Positions 4,332 to 21,600 of a stretch of 52,456 nt of DNA are shown here, piece by piece. The stretch is from positions 1 through 52,456 of IMG/VR virus record IMGVR_UViG_3300020411_002342; one strand, 5' to 3'. Position 1 is the first letter of the stretch; every line of letters starts with the position of its first letter. This DNA comes from a virus. Taxonomy: Duplodnaviria; Caudoviricetes. A model generated the notes under the pieces. That model was not told the DNA's origin and made no database searches. It saw only the letters and a program-made list of their open reading frames with translations. The translations under genes and the position numbers were made by a program.

Positions 4332-4423
4332 GTGACACTTTATAAACTGGACTTTTTTGTTTCAGTTTGTTACAAAACCCCCTTTTGGGGGTTTTTTTAT
4401 GTGTATAATATGGGAGTAAACAA
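4332..4423 (+). promoter_or_regulatory. Early promoter module 3 (box + GC hairpin/T-tract + -10)
   Basis: GTGACACTTTATAAACTGGAC (4332-4352), hairpin AAAACCCCC-TTTT-GGGGGTTTT (4374-4395), TATAAT at 4404, GTAAACAA at 4416. Confidence 0.75.
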
Positions 4424-4438
4424 ACGAACTTCGTTTTT

Positions 4439-4828
4439 ATGCCAGTTAAGTCTTCAACCTCTTCAAATACAACAACCCGTAAGAGAAGAACCCGTAAGAC
4501 CTCAACAACTCCAAGAAAGTCTGCATCTAAAGTTGCTACAACTGCAAAGAAAGTTGCAACCAAATCTGAACTAAAACCAGAGGAAGTTGCCTTCGGTTTG
4601 AGCGAAGTAGAACTAAAACAAGTTGAAAAACTTGTTAAGGAGTCACCCAAAACTACACAACCTAAAGTAACAAAAAAGGTTGTGAAAGTACAACCCAAAG
4701 TAACAAAAAAGGTTGTAAATGTGAGTCCTAAGAGAAGCATACTTGAATTAAATGCCTTTGAGTTGTTATTACTTCCAATTCTATATTTGGAAGAGTTCAC
4801 TAAACAGTTATTGAGTGACACTTTCTAA
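4439..4828 (+). CDS. Basic Lys/Thr/Ser-rich low-complexity protein with hydrophobic C-terminal helix
   Basis: ORF track. RKRRTRKTSTTPRKSASK N-terminus, QPKVTKKVV twice, FELLLLPILYL near the C-terminus. Confidence 0.7.
   Translation: MPVKSSTSSNTTTRKRRTRKTSTTPRKSASKVATTAKKVATKSELKPEEVAFGLSEVELKQVEKLVKESPKTTQPKVTKKVVKVQPKVTKKVVNVSPKRSILELNAFELLLLPILYLEEFTKQLLSDTF
4657..4722 (+). repeat. 33-bp in-frame tandem duplication (2 copies)
   Basis: ACAACCTAAAGTAACAAAAAAGGTTGTGAAAGT followed by ACAACCCAAAGTAACAAAAAAGGTTGTAAATGT. Confidence 0.9.
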
Positions 4829-4871
4829 ACTGAACACTAAAACCCCTAACGGGGTTTTTTTATGTTATATT
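4815..4871 (+). promoter_or_regulatory. Early promoter module 4 (box + hairpin/T-tract + -10)
   Basis: GTGACACTTTCTAAACTGAACAC (4815-4837), AAAACCCC-TAAC-GGGGTTTT (4839-4858), TATATT at 4866. Confidence 0.75.
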
Positions 4872-4902
4872 AAAAATATAACACCACTATTTCATTATTT
4901 CC

Positions 4903-5309: not shown

Positions 5310-5312
5310 TCT

Positions 5313-5370
5313 GTGACAGTCAACAAAGTGTCCACTCTGACCCCTAAATGGGGTTTTTTCGTGGTATATT
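5313..5370 (+). promoter_or_regulatory. Early promoter module 5 (box + hairpin/T-tract + extended -10)
   Basis: GTGACAGTCAACAAAGTGTCCAC (5313-5335), ACCCC-TAAAT-GGGGT then T-tract, TGGTATATT (5362-5370). Confidence 0.75.
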
Positions 5371-5424
5371 AAAAGAGTGGAAGAGGTTCCCACCTTACCA
5401 CACACTTTTTAAGTCATTTTGCTT

Positions 5425-5610
5425 ATGTTTCTTCAAATGGATTACAACTCAAAAGAGAAAGAATTGATCCGTAATTTCTTCTCTGATGATGAATGGAATG
5501 CCATTGATTCTGCTCTTGCTGATTATCAAGATTATGGTGACAAAGAGAGTGAGTTAATGTCAACTATTGGTCAAAAAATGTATGACTTGTTTAACACTCA
5601 AACCAGTTAA
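5425..5610 (+). CDS. Hypothetical protein
   Basis: Track ORF 5419..5610. ATG at 5425 or 5437; start uncertain. Confidence 0.65.
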   Translation: MFLQMDYNSKEKELIRNFFSDDEWNAIDSALADYQDYGDKESELMSTIGQKMYDLFNTQTS

Positions 5611-5672
5611 ATAAGTGTCACAACCTCACTTGTGTGGGGTTGTTTTATGTCTTATAATAACATTGTAAACAA
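5601..5672 (+). promoter_or_regulatory. Early promoter module 6 (box + hairpin + -10)
   Basis: AACCAGTTAAATAAGTGTCAC (5601-5621), hairpin ACAACCTCAC-TTGT-GTGGGGTTGT (5620-5643), TATAAT at 5653, GTAAACAA at 5665. Confidence 0.75.
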
Positions 5673-5698: not shown

Positions 5699-6037
5699 AT
5701 GAGAAAAATTGAATCACAAATGAATAGAGCAGTTGTTAACAGAAACAACTGGTCTAATTCTAATACTCAAGTTGTATACAATGAGAGTACAAATTGCAGT
5801 CAAGTTTATCTACATGGACATAATATTGCCACTGTAGATCATAACACAAATGCAGTCAAATTGTCATCTTGTGGTTATCAAACTAACACCACAAAATCAC
5901 GTTTAAATGCTTTACTTAGTGAAGTAAAGTATGGGTGTAGAGTATTTCAAAAAAATTGGGATTGGTATCTACAACGTAACAATCAGACTGTTGATTTTAC
6001 CGATGGAATGATATTACTTGATGGAGGAATTGTATAA
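5699..6037 (+). CDS. Conserved phage hypothetical protein (MRKIE...VYLHGHNIA...TTKSRLNALL)
   Basis: ORF track. CGGAG RBS upstream. Confidence 0.8.
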   Translation: MRKIESQMNRAVVNRNNWSNSNTQVVYNESTNCSQVYLHGHNIATVDHNTNAVKLSSCGYQTNTTKSRLNALLSEVKYGCRVFQKNWDWYLQRNNQTVDFTDGMILLDGGIV

Positions 6038-6430: not shown

Positions 6431-6583
6431 ATGAAAGTATCAAAATTAACATCAACAAAGTATCAACAACCGAACAATTCTGGTTATAGTTCACTTATAA
6501 AGATTAACCTTGTTAATGATATACAAGAAGAAAAAGAAGGACAATATTGTTATAAACCATATCGTACTATTCACAACTATTAA
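6431..6583 (+). CDS. Hypothetical protein (50 aa)
   Basis: Manual translation MKVSKLTSTKYQ...YKPYRTIHNY. GGAGG RBS. Not in track. Confidence 0.6.
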   Translation: MKVSKLTSTKYQQPNNSGYSSLIKINLVNDIQEEKEGQYCYKPYRTIHNY

Positions 6584-6598
6584 GGAGGTAATTTCATC

Positions 6599-6727
6599 AT
6601 GTCAGTATTACATCACGAATCACTACTTGAAACTTTATATGAAGAAGTTTGCGAGGAGTTTCCCTCATATAGTGAGGAACAATGCGAGACTATTGCTAAA
6701 CAAAGATTTGAGGATTTATGTCAATGA
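6599..6727 (+). CDS. Small acidic protein (42 aa)
   Basis: Manual translation MSVLHHESLLETLYEEVCEEFPSYSEEQCETIAKQRFEDLCQ. AAGGAGG RBS, ATGA overlap with the next gene. Not in track. Confidence 0.7.
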   Translation: MSVLHHESLLETLYEEVCEEFPSYSEEQCETIAKQRFEDLCQ

Positions 6728-6933
6728 GTAATAAAAGATCTGACATATTACGACAGTATTTGAGCAACATACACGAAGCATTTCCTGAGAGATGTGTAGC
6801 AAATGATGATCAATTACTGGATTTTAAAATTAAGTTAAGAGATCTAATTGAAGAACTTGATTATAATATAGACATTGCAGATTGTCTTTCTATGTTACAT
6901 GAATCCTTTGAAGATTTAGAGATGTATAATTGA
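6724..6933 (+). CDS. Hypothetical protein
   Basis: Track ORF 6718..6933. ATG at 6724 gives an ATGA overlap and fits the GAGGA RBS. Confidence 0.65.
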   Translation: MSNKRSDILRQYLSNIHEAFPERCVANDDQLLDFKIKLRDLIEELDYNIDIADCLSMLHESFEDLEMYN

Positions 6934-6936
6934 ACA

Positions 6937-6956
6937 ATTCGGAGATATTCGGAGAT
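6937..6956 (+). repeat. 10-bp direct repeat ATTCGGAGAT x2
   Basis: Perfect tandem in the intergenic gap. Confidence 0.8.
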
Positions 6957-6997
6957 TGCCCGCTTATTTTTAAACCCTCTATTTTCCCTTCTTAATT

Positions 6998-7165
6998 ATG
7001 AACAACTCAATCGAATCTGAAGCAATTAAAGTGCTCGAATGTCTGGAAGATTCAGTCGAGTATTTGTGTGATAGTGAACAATTATCTGGTGAGAAAGTGT
7101 GGACAATGATTTACGGATTAGCGGACTATAAGTTATCACAATTCCCTGTAACTTTGGAGGATTAA
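6998..7165 (+). CDS. Hypothetical protein (55 aa)
   Basis: Manual translation MNNSIESEAIKVLECLEDSVEYLCDSEQLSGEKVWTMIYGLADYKLSQFPVTLED. Not in track. Confidence 0.65.
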   Translation: MNNSIESEAIKVLECLEDSVEYLCDSEQLSGEKVWTMIYGLADYKLSQFPVTLED

Positions 7166-7330
7166 ATGACACAAACTGTATCCAAATTCACCAGAGCAGG
7201 TTATAACGGAAAAGAGATAATCTGTCCACAATGTTCACAAATTGCTACCGTATTTCACTTTAGTTGGAGCAACTTAGTGTGTAACAGTTGTAGAGAATCT
7301 GTGTGTAAATATGACTGGAGGTTAGTATAA
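7166..7330 (+). CDS. Zinc-ribbon-like microprotein (54 aa)
   Basis: Manual translation with CPQC-x15-CNSC. GGAGG RBS. Not in track. Confidence 0.7.
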   Translation: MTQTVSKFTRAGYNGKEIICPQCSQIATVFHFSWSNLVCNSCRESVCKYDWRLV

Positions 7331-7389
7331 ACAATGGTGTTAAATATTGTAGACATTATTGTTAATGAATATCCGAACAGATTATAACA

Positions 7390-7557
7390 ATGAAACAGTA
7401 CAGATTAACCTCTTCTAAAGTAACACATTACATTGCATTTATAGAAGCAGAAAGTGATATTGATGCTTACAATATTGCAACCAAAAATGATAACATTGAA
7501 TGGAAATTACTTGATGAAGATGATATCGACATATATGAAATTGATGCAGTAGATTAA
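7390..7557 (+). CDS. Small acidic protein (55 aa)
   Basis: Manual translation MKQYRLTSSKVTHYIAFIEAESDIDAY...EIDAVD. Not in track. Confidence 0.6.
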   Translation: MKQYRLTSSKVTHYIAFIEAESDIDAYNIATKNDNIEWKLLDEDDIDIYEIDAVD

Positions 7558-7582
7558 CACTTATTCCAATGCAATTACTACC

Positions 7583-7792
7583 ATGAAAACTAACAAGAAT
7601 GAAGAGATAAAATGCTATGTAGATGATACTGAAGTCAGTTGTATTACATGGGATAAAGTAACACATAAGATGAACGATTACCCACCCGAAATGTATAACG
7701 AAATACTCAAAGATTATGAGTGGAGATGGGGCAAATTCAACCCTAATATGTACCCAGTTGTTAATAAGAACTCAGACGAGATTGACGTTTGA
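7583..7792 (+). CDS. Hypothetical protein
   Basis: ORF track. Confidence 0.6.
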   Translation: MKTNKNEEIKCYVDDTEVSCITWDKVTHKMNDYPPEMYNEILKDYEWRWGKFNPNMYPVVNKNSDEIDV

Positions 7793-7959
7793 TTTATTGC
7801 TCAAATGGTATCAAATGTTACCGAATAAGTGTTATTTACTATTTTAAATGTATTTTTAAATATATTTAAGTGTTTTATATCGTTCTGGAAAGTATAATAA
7901 ATAGAGGGTTAATTGTGTCGAGTTCTTGTCATCTTAGGGGGAGAGATAACGACTCCGAT

Positions 7960-7988
7960 ATTATAAACTATCAACCCCGATTTGTCAA
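7960..7988 (-). promoter_or_regulatory. Consensus sigma70 promoter on the minus strand
   Basis: Reverse complement reads TTGACA(7988-7983)-N17-TATAAT(7965-7960). Confidence 0.75.
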
Positions 7989-8004
7989 CTCTGAGTATCA
8001 CAAA

Positions 8005-8033
8005 TTGACACAATATTACATGGGGTTTATAAC
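8005..8033 (+). promoter_or_regulatory. sigma70 promoter
   Basis: TTGACA(8005-8010)-N17-TATAAC(8028-8033). Confidence 0.7.
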
Positions 8034-8035
8034 AC

Positions 8036-8064
8036 TTGACAGTCTTATAATTACATCCTATAAT
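8036..8064 (+). promoter_or_regulatory. Consensus sigma70 promoter
   Basis: TTGACA(8036-8041)-N17-TATAAT(8059-8064). Confidence 0.8.
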
Positions 8065-8070
8065 ATAAGC

Positions 8071-8302
8071 AAATGGAACAGTACCTTATGAGCAGTTAAC
8101 CCACACAGATTGCCTCTGCATTTGAGCAGTTTATCTCTGCATATTATAAAGGTTTGCGAGATAAACAGTCACGAGATTACACCCCTATTTGAGCAGTTAA
8201 TTCGGTGGGGGTTGATGATGTGGGGTGGGGCGTATCGGGTTATAAAAACGCTTAAGTCCCTAACCTACAACGAACCAAAAACGAGCTCTTTATTTCACTC
8301 TC
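8071..8302 (+). ncRNA. Candidate non-coding RNA, long leader or primer RNA
   Basis: About 230 nt downstream of tandem strong promoters, with no convincing CDS, with repeats and G-tracts. Family not recognised. Confidence 0.35.
8089..8198 (+). repeat. Three TGAGCAGTT direct repeats
   Basis: Copies start at 8089, 8123 and 8190. Confidence 0.8.
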
Positions 8303-8500
8303 ATGAAAAAATTTTTCACGGCTGAAAATGCCGCCAAGGTCGCATTCGGAATAGGTGTTGCTTCTGCTTTTATGAAAGCTGCTACTGGAAAACCCTCTGC
8401 AACTGTCGGACGTTGTACTAACACCAAACCTCTATTTGTAGATAACTATAGAAGTGGTGATCGCAGGAAGTGGAGAAAAGATTTATATCCTAACGGTTAA
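8303..8500 (+). CDS. Hypothetical basic protein
   Basis: ORF track. No clear RBS; the start lies in the palindrome TGAAAAA-A-TTTTTCA. Confidence 0.5.
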   Translation: MKKFFTAENAAKVAFGIGVASAFMKAATGKPSATVGRCTNTKPLFVDNYRSGDRRKWRKDLYPNG

Positions 8501-8529
8501 TTGACAACGAATAAATATTGTAGTATGAT
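8501..8529 (+). promoter_or_regulatory. Composite promoter: sigma70 with nested late-type motif
   Basis: TTGACA(8501)-N17-TATGAT(8524) with AATAAATA (8510-8517) in the spacer. Confidence 0.7.
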
Positions 8530-8552
8530 ATAATTATTGGACACTGAACTTT

Positions 8553-9362
8553 ATGGCAAAAGCTAAAGGATTTAAAGTAATCCCCAAAGAAACAAAAGAA
8601 CAAAAAGAAGAATGGGATTACAATAGAATTAAGAATAGGTTTAGGGGAAAAAAGATAGTCTTCTGTTTACCAGGTAGAGGATGTTCTTATATCTTTTTAA
8701 AGAATTTTGTACAGTTATGTTTTGACTTAGTACAGAATGGTAATCAAATACAAATTTCTCAAGATTATTCTTCTATGGTTAACTTTGCACGATGCAAGGT
8801 CTTGGGAGCAAATGTATTAAGAGGACCAAAACAAATACCTTGGGATGGTAAATTAGAATACGACTATCAGTTATGGATAGACTCTGATATTGTATTTGAT
8901 ACTAATAAGTTTTGGCAATTAGTAGATCTTGCTACTAAGGATGCAGAGACAGAGGTAGATGGTAAACTTAGTATTGATGATAATAAGGTAAATGAGATTG
9001 CTGCTGGTTGGTATGCCACAGAAGATGGACATACTACATCTGTTGCACATTGGTTAGACGAGGAGAATTTTGCAAAGAATGGTGGTGTTATGAACCACGA
9101 AACTGTTGAATCTATCACTCGTAAAAGGAAACCGTTCACAGTCGATTATACTGGATTTGGTTGGGTACTAATTAAACATGGTGTATTTGAGAGACTTGAG
9201 TATCCTTGGTTTGCTCCGAAGATGCAGATCTTTGAGAGTGGTAATGTACAGGATATGTGTGGTGAGGATGTTTCATTCTGTCTTGATGCAAAGAAAGCAG
9301 GTATGGTGACATGGTGTGACCCACGTATCAGAGTAGGTCATGAGAAGACACGAATTATCTGA
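8553..9362 (+). CDS. GT-A fold (family 2-like) glycosyltransferase
   Basis: WIDSDIVF DxD motif, TGFGWVLIK, GEDVSFC, RVGHEK. Confidence 0.8.
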   Translation: MAKAKGFKVIPKETKEQKEEWDYNRIKNRFRGKKIVFCLPGRGCSYIFLKNFVQLCFDLVQNGNQIQISQDYSSMVNFARCKVLGANVLRGPKQIPWDGKLEYDYQLWIDSDIVFDTNKFWQLVDLATKDAETEVDGKLSIDDNKVNEIAAGWYATEDGHTTSVAHWLDEENFAKNGGVMNHETVESITRKRKPFTVDYTGFGWVLIKHGVFERLEYPWFAPKMQIFESGNVQDMCGEDVSFCLDAKKAGMVTWCDPRIRVGHEKTRII

Positions 9363-9434
9363 TACTTTATGGCGGCGTGTCTCTCCGAAATATCTCGGCG
9401 AGACTCCGAATAATCTGTACTAAGGAGGATACAA

Positions 9435-9620
9435 ATGCCAAAAAAACTTGAATTTAAATACAACCTTTTTCATGAAGGTAAACAATTGAATAAGAACCCT
9501 TTAAGCGAAGCAGGTAAATTTGATGCATTTCAAATACTGATTCGTTTATTTGATGAGGGTAAACCTGATGCTATCGATCCTGATGAGGTCGAAGTTGTTG
9601 ACATTACTGAAACAAAATGA
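9435..9620 (+). CDS. Hypothetical protein
   Basis: ORF track. AAGGAGG RBS. Confidence 0.75.
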   Translation: MPKKLEFKYNLFHEGKQLNKNPLSEAGKFDAFQILIRLFDEGKPDAIDPDEVEVVDITETK

Positions 9621-10286: not shown

Positions 10287-10685
10287 GTGTCATCTTCAAG
10301 GTCATTCAAAGATATAAATTTGTCGTTTAAGCGTCATCCAGTGACTAATGACCTTGTTACGGTCAAAAATGAGGATGCAATTAAACAATCTGTTAAAAAT
10401 ATCATTTTTACTATTGTTGGTGAGAAACCATTTAACTCTAACTTCGGAACACATATTAATGCGTTACTGTTTGAGTTAAATACTTCATATGGTGGTGAGT
10501 CAGCCATTCAATCACAAATTGAAAGTTCCTTGTCTCTTCAAGAGCCAAGAATTGATAATATTAGTGTTAATGTGAGTGTGGAACCTGATAGTAATGCAGT
10601 TTTCGCATCAGTTGAATATGATATTATTGGTCTTCCTGTTCCTGCTCAAACAGTAGATGTTCTTCTCCAACCAGCTAGAGTATAA
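10287..10685 (+). CDS. gp25: Baseplate wedge subunit gp25
   Basis: FKDINLSFKRHPVTND, AIKQSVKNII, GEKPF..NFG, EPRI motifs. Synteny with gp6. Confidence 0.92.
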   Translation: MSSSRSFKDINLSFKRHPVTNDLVTVKNEDAIKQSVKNIIFTIVGEKPFNSNFGTHINALLFELNTSYGGESAIQSQIESSLSLQEPRIDNISVNVSVEPDSNAVFASVEYDIIGLPVPAQTVDVLLQPARV

Positions 10686-12679
10686 TGGCATTCGGTCAAT
10701 ACGTTAATTTAGATTTCGATGAAATAAAAACGTCTATCAAAGACTATTTGAAGGCGAATAGTGATTTTACAGATTATGATTTTGAAGGTTCGAACCTTTC
10801 AATCATAATTGATGCACTTGCATACAATACATATACTACCGCATATAACACAAATATGGCGGCAAATGAAAGTTTTCTTGATTCCGCTACATTAAGAGAA
10901 AACGTTGTCGCCTTAGCACGTAATATTGGGTATGTTCCTCGTTCAAGACGTGCTGCCAGAGCAAAAATATCGTTTAATATCACTGGAATTACTGATTCTG
11001 TCACTGTTACACTTAAAGCTGGTTTAATTTGTAACGGTGCTGCAGGAAATACCAGTTATATTTTCTCAATTCCTCAAGATATTACTGTAAATGTCGTTCA
11101 GGGAGTCGCACAATTCAATGAAATTGAAATATTTGAAGGATTATTCATTAAACAAAACTTTAAAGTTAATACATCACAGTATAATCAGCGATTTATTCTT
11201 CCAAATTCGTTTATTGACACATCTACACTCAATGTAAAGGTAAGATCAACAGAAAATGCTACAAGTTCTGTTGAATATAAACAAATTAACAATATTATTG
11301 GTATAACTTCGACATCTTCTTCCTATTTGTTGCAAGAAATTGAGGATGAAAGGTATGAAATCATGTTTGGTGATGGTGTAATTGGTAAAAAACTTGCAAA
11401 TAACAACTATATTACAGTAAGTTACATTACAACTGCTGGAAAAGGTGGAAATGGAGCTGCAGAATTCAGCTTTATTGGTCAATTAGTTGATCAAGACGGT
11501 GGAGCTGTGAATCCAGCTAACGTTTCTCTTGTTACAACCAATGAAACTTCAAGAGATGGTGATGAAATTGAGTCAATTTCCTCCATAAAGTACTATTCAC
11601 CAAGAATTTACTCATCTCAATACCGTGCCGTGACATCTTCCGACTATGAATCGGTCTTGTCATACGTTTATCCTAATGTTGAATCAGTTACAGCGTATGG
11701 AGGGGAGGAATTAAACCCTCCAAGATACGGAAAAGTGTATATTTCTGTAAAACCAAGGAATGGTGACTACCTTTCTGACTTTACAAAGCGTGATTTAGTG
11801 CAAAAATTGAAGAGTTATGCGGTTGCTGGTATTGTTCCAGAGTTTGTTGACCTAAAATACCTTTATGTTGAGTTAGATGCTTATGCATATTACAATACAA
11901 ATTACATTAGTGACCCAGAAAACTTAAAATCTTTGGTTACTAACTCATTAAATCAGTATTCTAAGTCAATTGATGTTAATAGATTTGGTGGTAGGTTTAA
12001 ATATAGTAAGACTTTAGGATTAATTGATGGTGTAGACACCGCAATTGTGTCAAATATCACCAGAGTTATTATTAGAAGGAATTTGATATGTGAAATTAAT
12101 AAATTTGCTCAATATGAATTATGTTATGGAAATGCATTCCACGTTGCACAATCTTCATATAACATCACATCCACTGGATTCACCGTCCAGGGAGTGCCTG
12201 GCACTGTTTATCTTGCAGATGAGGTAATAAATGATACAAGAGGTAGAATATTCTTCTTTACATATACAGAAGGTGGAAAACCATCTATTATTAAGAAGAA
12301 TGCAGGTACAGTCAAATATGACATCGGTGAAATCCTTATAGATACTGTTAGCATAACCTCTACAGTCATTGAGAATAATATTGTGGAAGTTCAAGCTATT
12401 CCTTCTTCGAATGATGTTATTGGATTAAACGATTTGTATGTAAAACTTGATATGTCTAATACACACATCACTATGGTACAGGATATTATTGCTTCTGGAG
12501 AAAATACATCTGGTTCGAGTTTCATAAGAGGGTCAAGTTATGATATTCCAACATATACAAGATCTTCAAACTCTACCGTTTCTACAAAGAAAGCAATAAG
12601 TTCTACAGTTTCATCAACTACTAGTACAACTAGCAGTACATTTAATACAACATCGTCAACAACTGGATATACAACTTAA
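10685..12679 (+). CDS. gp6: Baseplate wedge subunit gp6
   Basis: LDFDEIK, DYDFEGSNLS, ESFLDSATLRENVV, QYRAVTSSDY motifs. Confidence 0.95.
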   Translation: MAFGQYVNLDFDEIKTSIKDYLKANSDFTDYDFEGSNLSIIIDALAYNTYTTAYNTNMAANESFLDSATLRENVVALARNIGYVPRSRRAARAKISFNITGITDSVTVTLKAGLICNGAAGNTSYIFSIPQDITVNVVQGVAQFNEIEIFEGLFIKQNFKVNTSQYNQRFILPNSFIDTSTLNVKVRSTENATSSVEYKQINNIIGITSTSSSYLLQEIEDERYEIMFGDGVIGKKLANNNYITVSYITTAGKGGNGAAEFSFIGQLVDQDGGAVNPANVSLVTTNETSRDGDEIESISSIKYYSPRIYSSQYRAVTSSDYESVLSYVYPNVESVTAYGGEELNPPRYGKVYISVKPRNGDYLSDFTKRDLVQKLKSYAVAGIVPEFVDLKYLYVELDAYAYYNTNYISDPENLKSLVTNSLNQYSKSIDVNRFGGRFKYSKTLGLIDGVDTAIVSNITRVIIRRNLICEINKFAQYELCYGNAFHVAQSSYNITSTGFTVQGVPGTVYLADEVINDTRGRIFFFTYTEGGKPSIIKKNAGTVKYDIGEILIDTVSITSTVIENNIVEVQAIPSSNDVIGLNDLYVKLDMSNTHITMVQDIIASGENTSGSSFIRGSSYDIPTYTRSSNSTVSTKKAISSTVSSTTSTTSSTFNTTSSTTGYTT

Positions 12680-15600
12680 TGATCGATACTTCAGTACAAA
12701 GGGTTAAAGTAAGTCAGGTAATTGAGAACCAATTACCTGAATTTGTGCAGGCAGAAAATCCACTTTTTGTGGATTTTATGAAACAATACTATATTTCACA
12801 AGAATTTCAAGGTGGAACTATAGATATTGCGGAAAATTTAGATCGTTATACAAAATTACAAACTTTTGTTGGTACAGCTCTGACAGAGTACACTGGATTA
12901 TCTACGGATACCCAAAATTACTCAAAAACGATATATGTTGACACAACAGATGGATATCCAGCTAAATATGGACTCTTAAAAATAGATGATGAGATAATAA
13001 CTTACACTGGAGTCGGTACTACTTCATTTACAGGTTGTATTCGTGGATTTAGTGGTGTTGATTCAATGGATCAACCTAATAGACCTGATCTTTTATCATT
13101 TAAAACAAGTGTTGGCGCTGCTCACACTGGTGGAACTAAGGTTTACAACCTTTCCAACCTCTTTATTCGTGAATTTTTCAGTAAATTAAAGACAACCTTC
13201 GCAAGTGGGTTTGAAAATAGGAAATTAGATAGTGATTTAGACCAAGTTAAGTTTATTCGACAAGTTAAGGACTTTTATAAGACAAAAGGAACAGATGAAG
13301 CGTATAAAATCCTTTTTAGAGCTTTATATGGAGAAGAAGTTAAGGTTATTAAACCATCTGAGTTTTTATTAAGACCTTCTGATGCAGATTACCAACTTAC
13401 ACAAGATTTTATTGTAAAATCGATTACAGGAGACCCAAGAGCATTAAAAAGTTCTACATTAGTACAAGATAAAGATGATAATGACGAAAATATCCTTGGT
13501 GCTAGTGGTGCTATATCAGATGTTAAGGATTTTATGTATGGTGGGGAACATTATTATCAAATAAGTGTTTCTAAAGACTCAATTAATGGTAATTTTGATA
13601 TTCCTGGTAGAACAAGACTTACTAATGCAGTTTCTATTGGTGGAACAGTTCTTACAGTAGATACTACTGTTGGATTTCCCACTAGTGGATCTGTAAGTAT
13701 TGCTAATGGCGATCCTTCTGGTATTGTAACTTATACTAATAAGACTCTTAACCAATTTACTGGTTTAAGTACAATGAGATCAGCCTTTAAGGTTGGTGAT
13801 GATGTAAGATATGGAAATGTTGCTTATGGATACTCTGTTGGTAATCTTTCAAAGAAAATTGAGGTTCTAATTACTGGTGTTCTTGGTGAATTTGATATTC
13901 CAGAGACAACTTTCTATTTTGATAAGAAAGATAAGATACGAGTTGGATCATTTGGTGTAAATAAGAGTATTCAAGATCAACATTTCAATTCTTGGATACA
14001 TAACGTTTCAGTAAGACATGCACCCAAATCTGTTACAGAGATTTCTTTAGGTACTTTTAATATTGAAACTACTTCTTCTAATGATTTCCTTGAAGAAGAT
14101 TTTGTTGAGATTTTAGATGGTGACGATAAAATATATGGAGTTGGTAGAGTAACATCTGTTATTAGTAATAATGTTTTTGTTCTAAGTGATATACCTGGAG
14201 TCGATATTGCAGAAATACAATATGTAAGACGAAGAATTAATAGAGGAAATAGTATTGTTCATGATAATATTACCAAATATACCACAGATGTTCAAAATAC
14301 TTATGAACATGCAGAATCCTCTTGTGTGTATGTTGCATCCCCTTCTATACCAAGTTTAGGTAATGAACCCATAACAGCATCAGATCGTTCTGTAGAGTGG
14401 TCTGGCACTACTGATGGCACTGAAGTACAAGTAACTACTGGTGCAGATGATCATGGATTCTATTCTGGTGAGGTTGTTAAATTTTCTATTGTTTCTGGTC
14501 ATAATAATCTGACTGATGGTAAGAATTATTATATTAAACGAGTTAGTTCAAATAATGTACAATTTGCAAATTCTTTACCAGATCTTGTACAAAATACTTT
14601 TGTAGATTCTACAGGAACTGGAACATTTAAGATTTCTGTTCCTGATATTGCTAATAAGAAATTAGAACATCAAAAATTATTAAAGAAAATTCCTATTAAT
14701 CCAGATTTTGATGGTAGTCAATATGAAACTACTGCTGCTACATCAACTGGAATATTAATTAATGGAACTGAAATTTATAATTACAAATCTGGAGATGTTA
14801 TCTTCTATGGTGGTGTTAAATCAATAGATGTTCTTGAAGGTGGTTCTGGGTATGATTTAATAACACCTCCAACTGTTACTATTGAAAGTACTTCTGGTTC
14901 TGGTGTAACTGCTACTGCTAATATTAAAGGTCAATTTGAAAGAATTGATATTGTTGATCCTGGTTTTGACTATATTGATGAACCAGTAGTAGAAATATCT
15001 GGTGGTAATGGTTCAAATGCTGTTGCTAGATCAAGATTAAGATTAATTGATCATTTTATTGATTTTGATGCATCTTCTACAGGAGATAGAATTAATATTG
15101 CAAATGATACTATTGGATTTACAACTTTCCATAAATTTAGGGATGGAGAACCTGTAATTTACCAAACTTTTAATACTGGTGCAATTGGTATTGCAAGTGC
15201 TGGTATTACAACAGATCAAATTCAAACAACACCAGATCAAAGACTTGTTGATAATGAAATCTATTATATTGCTAAAGTTGATGCTAGTACAATTAAACTT
15301 GCTAATACTAGAGAAGAGGCTTTAAGTAAATCCAATCTTCTTAACCTAACTGGTTATGCAGATGGTACTCAGAGATTCCAAAGTTTAGAAAGAAAGAAGG
15401 TATTGGGTGATATTATTATTGATAATCCAGGTGAAGGGTTTGAGAATAAGAGAAGACTTGTAAAACCTGCAGGAATTAATACTTATTCTGATTATATTGA
15501 ATATACTGGACATGGTTTTAAAGATGGTGAAATAGTTCAATATTCTTTTGATGGTACTGGAATTGGTGGTATCGATACTGAACAACAATATTATGTTTTA

Positions 15601-18600
15601 AAAGTAAATGATGATAGATTCCGTTTAGCTTCTGCTGGAATAGGAACAACTTTATCTGATGCAAATTATCTTGCAAAACAATTTGTTGGATTTACTTCTG
15701 TAGGAACTGGAGATCATATTTTCAATTATCCACCAATCTCTGTTAATGTAAAAGGAACTATAGGTGTTAATACAACTACTGCAGAGAATTATCATGCAGT
15801 TGTAAATCCAATTGTAAGAGGATCTATAACTTCTATTAATGTAGAGAAACCTGGTACTGGTTATGGATCACCAACTATATTTAATTTTAGTATTCCACCA
15901 ACTATTAGAGTTTCTTCTGGATCATCTTCAGAATATAAAGCTATTGTTTCTGATGGAAAGATTCAAGATATAATTATTACTCGTTCTGGTGGTGAATATA
16001 CATCCACTCCAGATTTGACAATTTTAGGAGATGGTATTGGTGCTAAAGTAGTTTCTTCTATAGACAGTAATGGAAATGTAAGTAAAGTTACTGTTAAAAA
16101 TGGTGGTGTTGGTTATTCAACTGCTACGGTTTCAGTACAAGAGAATATTCCTGGAACTGGTGCTGTTTTCTTATCAAAAATAGATAGTTGGAATATTGAT
16201 AATGTAAAACGATATGAGGATATTTTTGATAATGATGATGGATTCTTAGTAAGGGGTGATAATGATGAAGGTATTAAATTTACTTCTATGTACGCTCCAA
16301 GAGCGCTTAGAAAGGTCATAAAACAAAAAAATAGTGATAATACCTTAGATTACGCACAAAACGATTTAAGTCTCGTAAACAACGCCGAAGAGGTCTCTGG
16401 CAAGCATTCTCCTATCATTGGTTGGGCATATGATGGTAATCCAATTTATGGACCTTATGGATATGATAGAAAAGATGGTGGTATCGCTCGTCTGATTCGT
16501 TCCAGTTATTCTCTCAAAACTTCCAGAGAGAATGGACCTTCAGTTGCTGATTATCCACTTGGTTTCTTTATTGAGGATTATGAATATCTTGGAAATGGTG
16601 ATCTTGATAGAAATAATGGACGTTTTTGTGTTACTCCTGATTATCCTAGAGGAACTTATGCTTATTTTGCAACCATTAATACAACTGAAAATGAAACTAG
16701 TGGAACTTTTAAAAATTATCGTTCTCCAGTATTCCCCTATCTAATTGGTGAAAAATTTGCAGCCAAACCAAACGATTGGAACTTTACTGAAACAAATAAT
16801 CAATCAAAAGATATTAATACATCAGCTTTTAGGAGAAATACTTATCCATATAAACTTGATTCACCTGGTGCAAGATATTCTGGAATATATGACAGTAGAA
16901 AAATTGCAACTCAAGAAACTGAAGTTAATTATTCATCTCCTGGTGGAATTAATCAATATGAAATTGTAAGTTCTGGTGATAATTATCAAGTTAATGAAAA
17001 ATTAAATATTAGTGATCTTGATAATGGAGATGGTTTCTCTGCTAGAATTTCAAAAGTTGTAGGAAAAGATATTGTTTCTATTGCATCAACTGTTGTCAAA
17101 ATTGATAACGTTGTTTTCACGTATGATAATCAAACTGGAGGTGTTGTAGGACTATCATCTCAGCCACATGGTTTAACTGTAGGAGATAGGATAACAGTTT
17201 CTGGATTATCTACAGATTCTCTTAGACAAATTGATGGTAGACATACAGTTGGATTTAATACTTCATTATTTACTCTTGATAGTGCTGGAATAGGAACAAC
17301 AGGTGCAACAGGAATAGTAACAAGTATTAAAGTATCTGGTGATTTATCACCTAAGAATATTCTCCCTAATGACATTATAGGTATAGGATTAACTGAAAGA
17401 ATGTTAGTTCTAAATGTTGATCCAGTAAATTCAGAATTTAGAGTTCAGAGAGAATATAATGGAACTGTTGGAGCTTCTCATAGTGGAAGTGTTACTGTTA
17501 CTTCTCTAAACAGAGCTATAAACTTTAATCTTGGTATTTCTACAGATATAATCACAAATGTAAATGTTCCATATTATTTTAACCCAATTGAAACTCTGTC
17601 ATTAGGATCTACTGCTGGAGTTGGTGTTGGTTCTACATTATCATATTCATATAGAGTTATTGGTGCTACTACTGCTAATAAATTTGTTTTAAGTCAACAA
17701 GCTTATTTGCCTGATCATAGTTTTGTAGATGGTCAAAAATTAATATATGAAAATGGTGGTGGAACTTCAATACAAGTTTATAATGGTATATCTACTTTCA
17801 CTCTTGCAAATAATACGCCAGTATTTGCTATTAGAGATTCAAAAGATTTATTGGGAATATCAACTAATCCTTTAGGAATTGGTTCTGATGGTTCTGTGGC
17901 TGGTATTGGTTCAACTGCATATAGATTATTCTTTACTGGAAATGGTTCAGGCCAAATGCATAGTTTTAAACCACAAAAGACAGAAATTACTGGTTTTGTT
18001 GAAAAGGTGGTAGGAACCGTTGTATGTAAGGAAGATCATAATTTATTACAGAATGATACTGTTTCTATATCATTGACACCAGGTATCAGTACTACTCATT
18101 ATGTTGAATATGATGATGGTTCTAAGAGAACTATAATAGATGCAAAAACCTTTGGTGCTTCATCTGTTAATACATCAGAAAATACAATAACCATTAATAA
18201 TCATGGTTATAAAACAGGAGATAAAATTCTTTATAGATCATCTGGAACTGTAATTGCTCCATTGATTAATCATGAAATTTATTTTATTGTTAGAATAGAT
18301 GATAATAAATTTAAATTATCTAAAACTTATCACAGTTCTACTCTTCTTGTTCCTGAAATTATTGGATTAACAAGTACTGGATCTGGACATAAAATTGGAT
18401 TGATTAATCCATCATTATCTCTTACTCGTGGTTATAAAGTTGGTTTTGCTGTATCAGATACTTCATTAAGTCAAACTATTTCTGGAAACAAGAGACACAT
18501 CTTTAATTTTGATCTTTTTAATGACAAAAACTTTACTAATCCATATTATACCAATCAAAAAGATACTGGTTTCCAAGTTGTAGGTGTTGGTACTGTAGGT

Positions 18601-21600
18601 GTAACATCAACTGCATCAGTTGATTTACAATTAACAGATAATAGTCCTTCGGAATTATTTTATAGGTTAACACCAGTTAATTTGGGTATTGATGCTGACG
18701 CTAAACGTGATCCTGTTGTAGATACTGATGTTATTAATTATTCATCATTAAAAATTAACGATAGTACTTATAATGGAACTTATACTATTACTGGAATAGG
18801 TAGTACAACATTTACTTTTAATATTCCATATTTACCAGAAAGAGATTCTTATAAAGATAATGAAGCTGTTATTTTAAAATATTCAACTTCATCAACAAGA
18901 GCTTCTGGTCCAATTGACAAACTTAATATTGTTTCAAAAGGTAGAGGATATAAAACTGTACCAGTTGTAACTTCTATTGGGTCTACTCAAGGCACTGGTG
19001 GTCTTATTAGGTTAAACAGTACAGATGTTGGTGTATTAAGAAGATATACAACTAAAAATATTGGTTTTGATTATTCTGCCGATAAAACTATTCAACCATC
19101 TGTGCAATTACCACAAATTCTTCGATTAGATAGACTTTCTACTATTGATAATATTGGTATAACATCTGCTGGTAAAAATTATGTAGAAGCACCAAATCTT
19201 GTTGTTATTGATAGAGTAACTAATGAAGTTAATGAAGATGTAGTTACTGAATTGGAACTTCAAGGAACATCTATTTCAAAGGTCAATTTACTTAGAAACA
19301 CAAATAATCTTTATGATACTAATCCAAAAATTGTAACAACTAATAATTCAAATGGTGTTAAAGTAATAGGACTTTCATATACAAGTGGAACAAATCTTGT
19401 AACTTTGACTCTTGATGGAACATATACAACTTCCACATATCCATTTACAATAGGTAAGGAAATATATGTAGAAAATATTGGTATTGGTTCAACTGGAAGT
19501 GGATATAATTCATCTAATTACAATTATAAACCATTTACTGTTACTGGAGTTAATACAAATCCAGGTGGAGGAAATGCTACTGTTTCTTATAATTTAGATT
19601 CTTCGGTAACAAGTCCAGGTATCTTTAGTGGACCTTCATCATCTGGTACAGTTATACGATATGAAGATATGCCCATCTTCAATGTTACTGTAAAACCAAA
19701 TAAATTCTCCGATGGTGAAATTATTAGTACTGGTGATAAATCTGGTATAGTTGTTTCATGGAATGAAGATAATAAGTATATCAAAGTTTTATCCAATGAT
19801 ACCTTTGATAAAGGTGAAAAAATTAATGGACAATCATCAAAATCAGTTGCTGTTATAGAGCAAACTAATAAATTTGATTCTGTATTTAATATAACTTCAA
19901 ATGCACAAGTTATATCTGGATGGCAAAGAGAAACTGGTTTCTTGAATGATGAACTTCAAAGGTTACAAGATAATCAGTATTATAATACTTTTGCTTATTC
20001 ATTAGGAAGTGTAATAGATTATGATACTTGGAGAGATCCTGTTAATAGTTTAGGTCATGTTGTTGGATTTAAGAATTTTGCAGATGTTAATGTAGTTTCT
20101 ATTGCTGGTACTGATGCTAAAAATCGTTCAAATGCAAACGTCACAGTTGGTGATGCTGTTGCTGTAACGATTACCGATCTTATTAGTGAAAAAGAATCTA
20201 TTCATAATACATATGATTTTGATTTAGTAAGAGAAAATTCAAAGAGAATTGATGATAAAACAATAGCTTCTGATGAGATATTTTTTGATAATAAAATTAT
20301 CACAGATTATATTGAGGCAAGAAGTAATCGTGCTCTTTCCATTGATAGTGTAAGTTCTGAATTTAATGATCTTCCAAGAGCAACCGCATATTCTAATATT
20401 GGTGATTTTAACACTGACGAGGTAAGAAGTGCCAAGTATTATGTTCTTTTATTTGATAGAAGATATCCTGGTGAAAAAGAAATTATCCAAGTTAATGTTC
20501 TTCATGATGATAATCTTGGATACATTATGCCTTTTGGTAGAGTAGAAACTGAGATTGATCTTGGAACATTTGACTTTGATGTCACTGGTAAAGTTGGTAC
20601 TTTAAGATTTTTACCATCAAAATATAAAGTTAATAACTATGCTTTAAGATTATTTGCGATACAAGAATTTAATGAAACAGATTCAACTGGAATTGGTTCC
20701 ACAACATTTGGAACTGGATATCATATTGAGTCTAAAGCTGTTGGTGTTGGAACTAATGGTGATACACCTTTCCAAGTTGTTGGTTTAGGAACTGCAGGAG
20801 GAACAACTACTACAAAATTACTTGTATTAACAAATGAGACTAGTGGAAATCAAAGGAGTCAACTTAATGAATTAGTTGTAATGCAACATGGTTCTGAAGT
20901 TTATATGATTGATTATGCTCAAATGATCAATGAAAATATATCAGAAACTAACTCACCTAGCGTAGGTTTAGGTACTTTTGGTGCTGATGTAAGATCTGGT
21001 ATTGCAACTGTTTACTTTACACCTGTAACTGGTGTTGGTGTAACAATGAGAGTTCATCAAACTTCAATAGATTCTAATGCATCTGGTATAGGAAGTGATT
21101 TATATTCTCTAACTCAAGTATTAACTACAACAACAGATATTGCTGCTACCAGTTCTCCACAACCAACACGTATTAGTGGTTTTGGTTCTAATAGTTATCA
21201 AGCTGCAGATTGTTTAATTGAGATTACAGATACTACTAATGATAGAAGAGCTGTTACTCAAGTAACAATGATACATGATGGAACAACACCTTATTTCTCT
21301 GAATGGGGATATTTTGATACTTTCAATGGAACTGGTATTGGAACAATTGGTGTTGGTTATTCATCTACATCTGGTGGTGATTTAGAACTTAGACTTACAC
21401 CTCCAGCAAGTACAGCAGTTAAGACAAAAGTACTTCAATACAATATGACAGAAACTGGTGGTTCAGCTGCTGGAATTGTAACATTCACTAATAGTAGAAT
21501 CGAGGCTACAGATTCTTTATATACTGGAACAGAAAATGATGTTAAATTCTCGTTTGATTTAAAACATGCAGGATCTCCAGTATTCCATAAAGTATTTGAT

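Follow-up and report, generated by a model that had tools for sequence, protein, structure and literature searches.

Positions 7,793–8,302 of the window, by which we mean the whole 52,456-nucleotide stretch of viral DNA analysed, are a non-coding, two-module control region of T4-like cyanophages (Kyanoviridae) that is conserved and present in a single copy, and hundreds of related viruses keep this two-part control region. The left module combines an AT-rich block with back-to-back host-type promoters and is the phage's copy of a family-wide cassette, and the right module is a non-coding, unfolded leader predicted to be transcribed from those promoters. The ORF-poor control locus that a first-pass annotation had placed at an early/late boundary is real and conserved, and lies where a block of small ORFs meets the structural genes. 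T4-like cyanophages are among the most abundant marine viruses and, to our knowledge, neither their replication origins nor their switch to virion-gene expression has been mapped; the locus is a good candidate for the start of DNA copying or for the switch to particle production.

We found no previous description of the single-copy 12-letter signal that the region carries ahead of the tail-baseplate genes. As first proposed, the locus matches no described family: Rfam gave no match over the whole window at the gathering score, and the papers listed for the motif strings are all unrelated. Start-site maps for Syn9 and P-TIM40 were reportedly published by Doron et al. in 2016, and such maps may show transcripts here. 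In the main texts covered, the element is undescribed: among the papers listed for cyanophage transcription starts and non-coding RNA there is nothing on the locus, and those listed for cyanophages with a DnaA box or origin include no cyanophage paper. The locus is likewise not mentioned in the available portions of Sullivan 2010 (PMC3037559) and Puxty 2018 (PMC5931967).

Layout and coding potential of the region

The features, in window coordinates, are the following.

7792..7806, minus strand: inverted 8/9 copy of the TTTGAGCAG repeat (of the TGAGCAGTT array), directly after the stop of an upstream 69-aa ORF
7793–8064: module 1, the left part
7825..7884, no strand: AT-rich block, 86.7% AT, counterpart by homology of the AT-rich core in the family cassette (DnaA-box-bearing in relatives)
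7842–7865: tandem 12-mers TTTTAAATGTAT / TTTTAAATATAT, inside the AT-rich block
7960..7988, minus strand: perfect 12/12 sigma70-type promoter (TTGACA-17-TATAAT; promoter scan), pointing leftwards into the AT-rich block
8005..8033, plus strand: 11/12 promoter-like site, TTGACA (8005–8010)-17-TATAAC (8028–8033), read from the sequence
8036..8064, plus strand: perfect 12/12 sigma70-type promoter (promoter scan), pointing rightwards, predicted start near 8071
8087 to about 8316: module 2, the right part (end approximate)
8089..8198, plus strand: three TGAGCAGTT copies, at 8089, 8123 and 8190
8129–8137 / 8158–8166, plus strand: 9-bp hairpin within the repeat stretch
8207–8211, 8222–8225, 8227–8230 and 8237–8239, plus strand: four G-tracts, taking the place here of the family's G/T-rich then GC-rich segment ahead of the A-tract
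8241..8248, plus strand: A-tract box TATAAAAA
8257..8276, plus strand: core TCCCTAACCTACAACGAACC (20-mer)
8258–8269, plus strand: invariant 12-mer CCCTAACCTACA, common to the whole family
8270–8276, plus strand: ACGAACC, the 'type A' allele of the variable segment
8277..8316, plus strand: AAAAACGAG, AT-rich box and A6T5 (8306–8316), the conserved downstream motifs of the element
8303..8500, plus strand: 65-aa ORF, a possible small gene whose start overlaps the A6T5 motif
8501..8529, plus strand: 11/12 sigma70-type promoter of the next gene
8553–9362, plus strand: glycosyltransferase-like gene

Module 2 keeps a fixed order, running from CAGT repeats through a G/T-rich and then GC-rich segment to the A-tract, CCCTAACCTACA, an allele-like segment of 8–12 nt and AT-rich boxes. 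The two modules do not form one unit; in relatives they stand 0.5–1 kb apart with small genes between them.

That no credible coding sequence lies here, as the first-pass annotation had it, agrees with the comparison of relatives: of the frames spanning −60..+72 relative to the core, even the best is open in no more than 24 of 223 non-redundant relatives, and the window ORFs 7870..8091, 8110..8325 and 7909..8013 (minus strand) overlap conserved non-coding motifs. The window ORF 8110..8325 and an annotated S-SCSM2R coding sequence run through the core in different frames; the small ORFs annotated in S-SCSM2R over the element or cassette, and likewise Syn9 gp85–gp88 (compared by coordinates only), are probably spurious. 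The right edge of the non-coding stretch is less certain, and the 65-aa ORF may be real. It has no tblastn match among the loci compared and no Pfam or PHROG family, and one relative (L176) carries a syntenic 55-aa ORF with a similar N-terminus.

Distribution and alleles of the core

The core is present in more than 350 viral contigs, at least 119 of which hold the exact 20-mer and at least 240 more the A-tract with the 12-mer. It occurs once per complete genome in eight named cyanomyoviruses, with one exact copy each in S-SSM7, S-SCSM2R, Bellamy, P-TIM40 and DSL-LC02 (5/5) and in Syn9, P-SSM2 and P-SSM4, the latter being three of five genomes picked irrespective of the element. Among loci found through gp25 alone, with at least 3.5 kb of upstream sequence, six of eight carry the exact core. 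The control region lies 0.9–7.6 kb upstream of the baseplate genes gp25/gp6, and 179 of 181 loci have a same-strand gp25 homologue downstream, at a median distance of 2.57 kb. The earlier reading had staked itself on conservation in relatives, and the element is indeed kept, single-copy and syntenic ahead of gp25. S-PM2 retains the flanking motifs and has lost the core, and P-HM2 gave no match to it; the core is thus dispensable in some lineages.

Immediately after the 12-mer, the variable segment falls into discrete alleles, which across 320 unique sequences number 104 for type B, 96 for type A, 43 for D, 37 for C, 15 for H, 9 for F and 7 each for E and G, with two unclassified. The allele differs despite an upstream flank at least 90% identical in 3 of 167 pairs (L155 and L163, for example). 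Among 72 type-A relatives, 70 have 6–9 nt between the end of the A-tract and the core. The same block stands out in environmental data: in each of four metagenome runs (4/4), far more contigs match 8216–8317 than match the flanks, contigs start or stop at the core, and the alternative continuations past it are those of other family members. Metagenome assemblies, in other words, break at the core.

The 12-mer at 8258–8269 is the most conserved part of the locus and had been absent from the first-pass annotation; the core includes a −10-like TAACCT. Likeness of the core to a Pho box, NtcA, IHF, boxA or 16S rRNA was judged by eye and set aside, since the family does not conserve the letters involved. 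The ideas that the core came from a host, or that it has an exact antisense target, were also rejected: exact matching of its 18-mer against 185,579 prokaryote genomes, on both strands, returned three chance matches only.

Promoters, AT-rich DNA and a candidate origin

Three near-perfect sigma70 promoters, one on the minus and two on the plus strand, had been described from the sequence; all are present, two of them matching at 12/12 and the third at 11/12, and the last (8005..8033) is absent from the promoter-scan list because the usual final T is missing. Over 6500–9500 the promoter-like sites total 18 against 13.1 (s.d. 3.8) in shuffles, which is near shuffle level, and what stands out is the pair of perfect promoters side by side rather than the total. 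The minus-strand promoter is kept in relatives L380 and L383, a counterpart of the rightward one is present in L380–L383 and Syn9, and sequence comparison finds 7820–8064 homologous to the AT-rich/promoter cassette of relatives. The AT-rich block, previously placed at about 7830–7880, is borne out by measurement, ranking second in AT content among the 60-mers of the 52-kb window, in a genome averaging 66% AT. It begins about 70 nt past the predicted leftward start (spanning about 70–130 nt). After the rightward start, the first 100 nt, judged by eye, are not AT-rich, and AT-rich boxes follow 170–250 nt downstream.

The locus has an origin-like anatomy, with strong promoters pointing apart, AT-rich DNA, repeats and occurrence in one copy, and a transcription-activated origin is the reading that fits it best; it is unproven, and we hold it tentatively, at somewhat short of an even chance. 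The steps that we infer would be these. Host RNA polymerase would start at the perfect promoters and transcribe into easily melted DNA, leftward transcription entering the AT-rich block and rightward transcription passing a GC-rich clamp into the AT-rich element. Transcription would open the duplex and/or leave an RNA that primes first-round phage DNA synthesis, as at T4 oriF and oriG, and the invariant core may serve as a docking site, read as DNA or as nascent-RNA sequence, for a conserved host or phage factor.

The T4 origins oriF (ori uvsY) and oriG (ori 34), each a promoter with a downstream unwinding element primed from an R-loop, are the closest model: they too belong to a T4-type phage and follow a non-iteron logic in which a strong host-polymerase promoter faces meltable DNA. 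By sequence match, the two 12/12 sites would provide the host-polymerase promoter, used before late transcription, that an R-loop origin of this type has. The T4 record gives the oriF primer RNA as the uvsY transcript and places oriF next to gene 25. The differences are nevertheless several. T4 oriF comes after gene 25, whereas the cyanophage locus comes before gp25; T4 origins use MotA-dependent middle promoters, whereas those here are plain sigma70-type, and we know of no MotA in cyanophages; T4 origins have no 12-nt invariant core; and the stretch after the rightward promoter, by eye, is not visibly AT-rich as a T4-type unwinding element is. The first-pass annotation had offered an inflection of cumulative GC skew near 8 kb as support for an origin, and there is none in the window, nor around the element in Syn9 or S-SSM7, both complete genomes, skew being positive throughout all three; the test is a weak one, because skew follows the one-strand gene layout of T4-like genomes. 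Also counting against an origin are the lineages that lack the core (S-PM2, P-HM2), the poor conservation of the G-tracts, the spacing of the two modules in relatives and the generic character of the CAGT/GT-rich part.

In part of the family, the cassette has a further origin-like trait. At −1300..−400, 54 of 155 relatives' loci (about a third) carry at least two DnaA boxes and 39 of 155 at least three, against 2/155 in a downstream control region and 0/155 for the reversed motif. Such a cassette holds anywhere from two to five or more TTTTCCACA / TGTGGAAAA copies, frequently paired in inverted orientation on either side of the AT-rich block; TTTTCCACA is given as the cyanobacterial DnaA box in PMC4674748. 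In Syn9, three DnaA-like boxes sit at about 52,553–52,597 of DQ149023. The box-bearing cassettes resemble cyanobacterial oriC arrays and the plasmid and phage origins in which DnaA boxes accompany AT-rich DNA, but no dnaA or dnaN context accompanies the phage locus, two thirds of relatives have no boxes at that position, and the window has none: 7793–8302 contains no DnaA box at up to one mismatch, and the pattern of a DnaA-dependent origin is not found here. Across the whole window one-mismatch matches number 15 against 28.8 expected, and no boxes lie near the element in S-SSM7, P-SSM2, P-SSM4, P-TIM40 or Bellamy. The boxes therefore look like an optional add-on. If DnaA docking in the relatives is real, these T4-type phages would be making use of the host's initiator, which the T4 paradigm does not include.

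Going beyond the origin itself, we suggest, as a rather doubtful proposal, that the A-tract with CCCTAACCTACA may be a new class of cis signal in marine T4-like cyanophages, at which a sequence-specific factor would dock and fix a single start, either of first-round replication priming or of processive entry into the structural block. The adjacent 8–12 nt would act as a specificity allele by which co-infecting phages distinguish self from rival. The single-copy 12-letter target, and the neighbouring promoter/AT-rich cassette with its optional host DnaA boxes, can each be deleted, swapped or used as bait, and phages such as Syn9, P-SSM2 and P-TIM40 have already been engineered and profiled.

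Rival readings of the core and its flanks

The main rival, a possible but somewhat unlikely one, takes module 2 as a pure gene-expression leader with no replication role: a long 5′ untranslated region, or a signal close to the promoter, serving the genes that open the structural block. Transcription (pausing, processivity or late-type initiation at TATA-like boxes), mRNA stability or translation would then be governed by the core and the A/T boxes, for example through a RegA-type operator at A6T5. Much of the layout is consistent with it. The element has a fixed orientation that agrees with its flanking genes, gp25 lies downstream almost without exception, and ORFs cover the plus strand downstream of the element in 145 of 202 loci, the first of at least 50 aa starting at a median of +103 from the core. 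In 49 of 134 loci the 200 nt upstream of the core contain the end of a plus-strand promoter scoring 11/12 or better, with none at 0..+100, and TATA-like boxes across the family peak at −20, +30..+49 and +60..+69. The core is also unstructured (family-wide mean fold z = −0.28), as an entry site for a factor or ribosome could be. Against the leader reading, the canonical late motif of this phage, CTAAATA / TATAAATA, coincides with the A-tract in only 6 of 223 relatives and with the +30 box in only 33, and the A-tract as a canonical T4-type late promoter was rejected on these counts. The genes downstream of the element also vary between phages, the next annotated gene in DSL-LC02 lying on the opposite strand, and the plus strand from 8064 to 9500 has no terminator-like site, hence no intrinsic terminator for a read-through signal to overcome. 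A phage NusG-like factor as reader of the core was set aside as well: a PF02357 (NusG-like) search of phage genes found nothing in the window or in the four complete element-bearing genomes Syn9, S-SSM7, P-SSM2 and P-TIM40, and the control succeeded in 10 of 14 genomes.

Two kinds of bacterial leader signal are instructive here. The ops (JUMPStart) element is the recruitment site for RfaH in the leaders of long bacterial operons, and the cyanophage signal resembles it as a 12-nt invariant, strand-specific and unfolded signal in a leader before a very long co-directional gene block; types B and C even allow a 4–5 bp hairpin in the non-template strand, as ops does, whereas type A, the window's, has none. 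There is no sequence likeness to ops, however, and no phage NusG/RfaH-like gene, the structural genes here have their own late promoters, and we know of no Rho in cyanobacteria. The lambdoid leader signals are nut, and qut with its promoter-proximal pause; these too are cis signals early in the transcript at the entry to late genes, and the core shares a −10-like motif with them. They differ in that here we find no boxB-type hairpin, no downstream terminator and no N/Q-like gene, and in that the distance from the sigma70 promoters varies: in most loci 82 to 237 nt separate the end of the −10 box from the core, and in three that end lies at −40.

It is improbable that the core is a DNA site of some other kind, serving nicking or clamp loading (a late-transcription enhancer), packaging, recombination, or cleavage or immunity between co-infecting phages, with the variable segment as specificity allele. 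The non-palindromic block of about 20 bp, one half shared and the other allele-like, would suit such a site, as would the discrete alleles with their few switches between near-identical upstream flanks, the position between two hypervariable gene regions and the many co-occurring field genotypes that share the element. Those switches are rare between close relatives, however, and no cognate enzyme gene was identified next to the element. We know of no need for a fixed packaging site in T4-type phages, which counts against packaging in particular.

The features peculiar to the window (TGAGCAGTT array, G-tracts, inverted pair and abutting promoters) might instead be functionless by-products of the loss of one or more small genes between the modules, which we consider distinctly improbable. 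In favour of such a loss, the genes driven by the rightward promoter in L380–L383, L002 and Syn9 are small ones, with the element a further 0.5–1 kb away. The three TGAGCAGTT repeats and the four G-tracts reported earlier are both confirmed, but neither is conserved in relatives as an array; before the A-tract, a run of at least 7 C occurs in 24 of 223 relatives and a run of at least 7 G in 6 of 223. The 9-bp inverted pair also noted earlier (7970–7978 / 8208–8216) exists at both places and has no special standing: it is probably chance, being among 19 such pairs in 1 kb, with arms 229 nt apart and one of them in the spacer of the minus-strand promoter. Speaking against by-products, TGAGCAGTT is over-represented, with four copies in the window against 0.47 expected (0 of 100 shuffles reach four), and 199 of 223 relatives have one CAGT-type motif at −90..−10.

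Very improbable is a small trans-acting RNA for which the A-tract would be the promoter and the core the single-stranded 5′ seed, pairing with a host or phage target. Given the fixed spacing of 6–9 nt between A-tract and core, which favours it, such an RNA would start about 4–5 nt before the core; the core is moreover C/A-rich, unstructured, single-copy and strand-specific, and its variable segment comes in discrete alleles, as seeds can. Many A-tract variants (TTTAAAAAA, TATCAAAAAA) are nevertheless poor −10 boxes, no terminator follows on the plus strand up to 9500, downstream of the core the family consensus is AT-rich and forms no hairpin, there is no conserved fold and no Rfam match, and the exact 18-mer search on either strand offered no target beyond chance.

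A gene for a folded RNA, the structured-RNA locus of the first-pass annotation, is not supported: the locus has fold z-scores of −0.97 and −1.00 on its two strands, RNAalifold found no structure in 61 type-A sequences, the covariation check gave an invariant 4–5 bp hairpin only in types B and C with no compensatory pairs (alignment folding), Rfam at E up to 10 over 7500–8700 gave two chance-level matches only (E 2.9 and 6.1), and a tRNA scan found no tRNAs. A helix CGNN...NNCG around the core, noticed by eye, is not kept across types and was not recovered by RNAalifold.

The CAGT and GT-rich part of the element belongs to a generic early cassette with four further occurrences in the window. 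T4-type coliphages reportedly carry PeSL (promoter-early stem-loop) cassettes, described by Arbiol et al. in 2010, and the upstream part of the element resembles four cassettes of stem-loop, T-run and −10-like box in the early region here (4365–4415, 4805–4875, 5310–5374 and 5605–5665). PeSLs are multi-copy and flank mobile ORFs, whereas the A-tract and core are single-copy and stand outside such cassettes.

A conserved core upstream of gp25

The ORF-poor stretch at 7793-8302 of this T4-like cyanomyovirus contig (52,456 bp; estimated completeness 27%) is a real, conserved and composite control region. Its most conserved part, which the first-pass annotation had missed, is a 12-mer core, CCCTAACCTACA (8258-8269), preceded by an A-tract in the right half of the locus. 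All 100 phage records matching the window belong to phages of Synechococcus or Prochlorococcus or to viruses from the sea, the plus strand carries almost every long ORF, and the following genes serve as landmarks.

Annotated ORFs around the locus
5699-6037: Kyanoviridae Gp96 family member
8553-9362: phage glycosyltransferase-like protein, phrog_1574
10287-10685: gp25
10685-12679: gp6

Within the structural block, gp6 is followed directly by two giant plus-strand ORFs, at 12679-24714 (4011 aa) and 26314-33972 (2552 aa).

By BLAST, 8187-8320 is common to S-SCSM2R and a single-cell virus contig. The 20-mer TCCCTAACCTACAACGAACC (8257-8276) is found exactly in at least 119 viral contigs, and two scans for an A-tract, 6-13 nt and CCCTAACCTACA followed by other letters added at least 240 further contigs; these searches demanded the core, so that its invariance there is by construction. 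Among five classic genomes picked regardless of it, three contain the exact 12-mer (Syn9 at 53,504, P-SSM2 at 69,104 and P-SSM4 at 51,844), and it was not found in S-PM2 or P-HM2. Retrieval through gp25 alone yielded 80 loci, 72 of which were set aside for insufficient flank; six of the eight usable loci, with at least 3.5 kb upstream, carry the exact 12-mer. Each of the eight named genomes having the core has a single exact copy, which is oriented with the genes and falls in a gap between annotations. Of 181 loci offering 5 kb or more of downstream sequence, 179 have a gp25 homolog there in the orientation of the core, at a median distance of 2.57 kb (range 0.9-7.6 kb; 2.03 kb in the window). 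The syntenic gap of S-PM2 (25,040-25,240; 1440-1640 of locus L388) has lost the A-tract and core and kept a CAGT hairpin-terminator, GAGCAGTTATTT, the GC-rich segment, GTGATAAATATT and CTATATAAAAAAATTCGCCC.

In contigs of four metagenome runs from four studies, 8216-8317 is matched by far more contigs than its flanks in every run, contigs with the window genotype begin or end at 8251-8267, and loose contig ends continue like other family members. This pattern indicates that the element is common to many co-occurring genotypes. Segments 7655-7705 and 7808-7909 likewise draw many more contigs than their flanks and are shared among co-occurring genotypes. The A-tract and CCCTAACCTACA element appears to be undescribed so far; its motif strings turn up in unrelated papers only, a search for cyanophage DnaA boxes or origins had no cyanophage paper among the results listed, and the locus is unmentioned in the accessible portions of Sullivan 2010 (PMC3037559) and Puxty 2018 (PMC5931967).

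Anatomy of the element and its variable segment

The layout below derives from 223 sequences less than 80% alike, with offsets in nucleotides relative to the core.

Parts of the element, 5' to 3'
-90 to -10: one or more CAGT motifs, in 199 of 223 sequences
-60 to -40: G/T-rich segment, 15% A
-40 to -20: GC-rich segment, folding better than shuffles in ~30% of sequences
Ending 6-9 nt ahead of the core: A-tract
After the A-tract: 12-mer core CCCTAACCTACA
After the core: variable segment, 8-12 nt
After the variable segment: AAANCGAG
+30 to +49: TATA-like box
About +46 to +57: A5-7T3-5
After A5-7T3-5: second TATAAAAAA, frequent
3' end: ribosome site, then gene

The CAGT motif is strand-specific (123 hits in the -70 bin versus 7 for its reverse complement), and the median start of the first plus-strand ORF (50 aa or longer) is +103. 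Four cassettes with CAGT upstream stand in the early, small-ORF region of the window (4365-4415, 4805-4875, 5310-5374 and 5605-5665), in the order CAGT, (AA)GTGTC/GTGACA, CCCC-loop-GGGG hairpin, T-run and TATGT..TATAAT/TATATT. They have the look of a terminator joined to a promoter, and might represent the cyanophage early regulatory element; the CAGT and GT-rich part of the conserved element is generic and looks like one more cassette of this kind. The A-tract and core have no second copy in the window. The segment just before the A-tract is a simple-repeat hotspot; in four related loci (L049, L118, L249 and L293) it holds GGTATAAA-type 8-mers in tandem, or a homopolymer of 7-11 C or of 7-11 G.

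The variable segment is allele-like. About eight discrete alleles occupy +12 to +24 (8270-8276 in the window), and they recur in different flank backgrounds. Among 320 unique sequences, type B (GAGGTGAC) accounts for 104, type A (ACGAACC, as in the window) for 96, D for 43 and C for 37, followed by H (15), F (9), E (7), G (7) and two unclassified. The allele differs in 3 of 167 pairs with upstream flanks at least 90% identical, for example L155 and L163, and the nearest syntenic relative of the window (L176) bears another allele.

Promoters, AT-rich block and DnaA boxes

Of the three sigma70 promoters proposed earlier, those at 7988..7960 (minus strand) and 8036..8064 (plus strand) score 12/12 in a promoter scan; the third, TTGACA-17-TATAAC at 8005-8033, can be read from the sequence but lacks the final T (11/12). 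The AT-rich block is equally real, 7825-7884 being 86.7% AT and ranking second among the window's 60-mers. The TGAGCAGTT repeats were recovered at 8089, 8123 and 8190; the whole window has four copies against 0.47 expected, a count reached in 0 of 100 shuffles, and an inverted copy (8/9 match) lies at 7792-7806. The four reported G-tracts do fall within 8207-8239, and show no conservation among relatives (223 sequences). The 9-bp inverted pair exists but is read as chance, because it is one of 19 such pairs in 1 kb.

Window 7820-8064 is homologous to an AT-rich block and divergent-promoter cassette in relatives found via an upstream 69-aa ORF, and Syn9 also has it. In those relatives the cassette bears TTTTCCACA / TGTGGAAAA boxes, given as the cyanobacterial DnaA box in PMC4674748. 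Across 155 unique loci, covering 1.3 kb either side of the core, the interval -1300 to -400 contains at least two boxes in 54 loci and at least three in 39, whereas at least two occur downstream in 2/155 and with the reversed motif in 0/155. The clusters lie 0.4-1.3 kb 5' of the core, often as inverted pairs around the AT-rich block, and TGTGGATAA also occurs; examples are L379, L380, L381, L382, L383 and Syn9 (L375; about 52,553-52,597 of DQ149023). The window locus has no DnaA box, one-mismatch matches in the whole window are fewer than in shuffles (15 versus 28.8), and none lies near the element in S-SSM7, P-SSM2, P-SSM4, P-TIM40 or Bellamy. Relatives have a rightward promoter ahead of one to three small genes, with the core 0.5-1 kb beyond; in the window these genes are absent and the promoters adjoin the element.

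Origin, expression leader or transcript

The first-pass annotation had proposed an R-loop origin or a structured RNA. Judged from sequence features, a replication origin would fit best among the readings, and we favour it tentatively, at somewhat short of even odds. Single copy, synteny, non-coding character, strong promoters, the AT block and the DnaA boxes of relatives count for it, as does the T4 record, in which oriF, beside gene 25, is annotated with the uvsY transcript as its primer. Against it count the window's lack of DnaA boxes, the core's loss in S-PM2 and absence in P-HM2, the unconserved G-tracts and the separability of the two modules. Also against it, the GC-skew inflection anticipated for an origin is absent from the window, Syn9 and S-SSM7, although skew in them tracks gene orientation. 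In Syn9 and P-TIM40, middle genes are reportedly transcribed from host-like promoters; were that the case, the promoters of the locus would share a temporal class with T4 origin promoters.

The main rival to an origin, a purely gene-expression leader, is given somewhat lower odds. In 49 of 134 loci, the 200 nt upstream of the core contain the end of a plus-strand promoter scoring 11/12 or better, and 16 of 134 have a minus-strand promoter no more than 1 kb away. The canonical late motifs CTAAATA / TATAAATA precede structural genes in the window, yet such a motif coincides with the A-tract in just 6/223 sequences and with the +30 box in 33/223. Four complete genomes contain no NusG-like phage gene, and the annotated gene that follows the element in DSL-LC02 is convergent.

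The element is neither coding, folded nor host-derived. A structured RNA was rejected: Rfam has no match at the locus, the predicted transcripts fold no better than shuffles (z = -0.97 for 8071-8302, plus strand; -1.00 for 7953-7793, minus strand), and no covariation supports a consensus structure, RNAalifold giving none among type A sequences and, for types B and C, an invariant 4-5 bp hairpin alone, without compensatory changes. Family-wide the core region is unstructured (mean z -0.28), a tRNA scan found none, and an 18-mer search of 185,579 prokaryote genomes returned three matches, all context-free. No frame is open across -60 to +72 in more than 24 of 223 sequences, and the core is read in different frames by the annotated S-SCSM2R CDS and window ORF 8110..8325. 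That CDS, SSCSM2R_94 (2513-2731 of L001), is annotated on top of the conserved non-coding element, and Syn9 gp85-gp88 (782-1507 of L378), judged from coordinates, overlie the DnaA-box and AT-rich cassette; these are probably spurious CDS calls.
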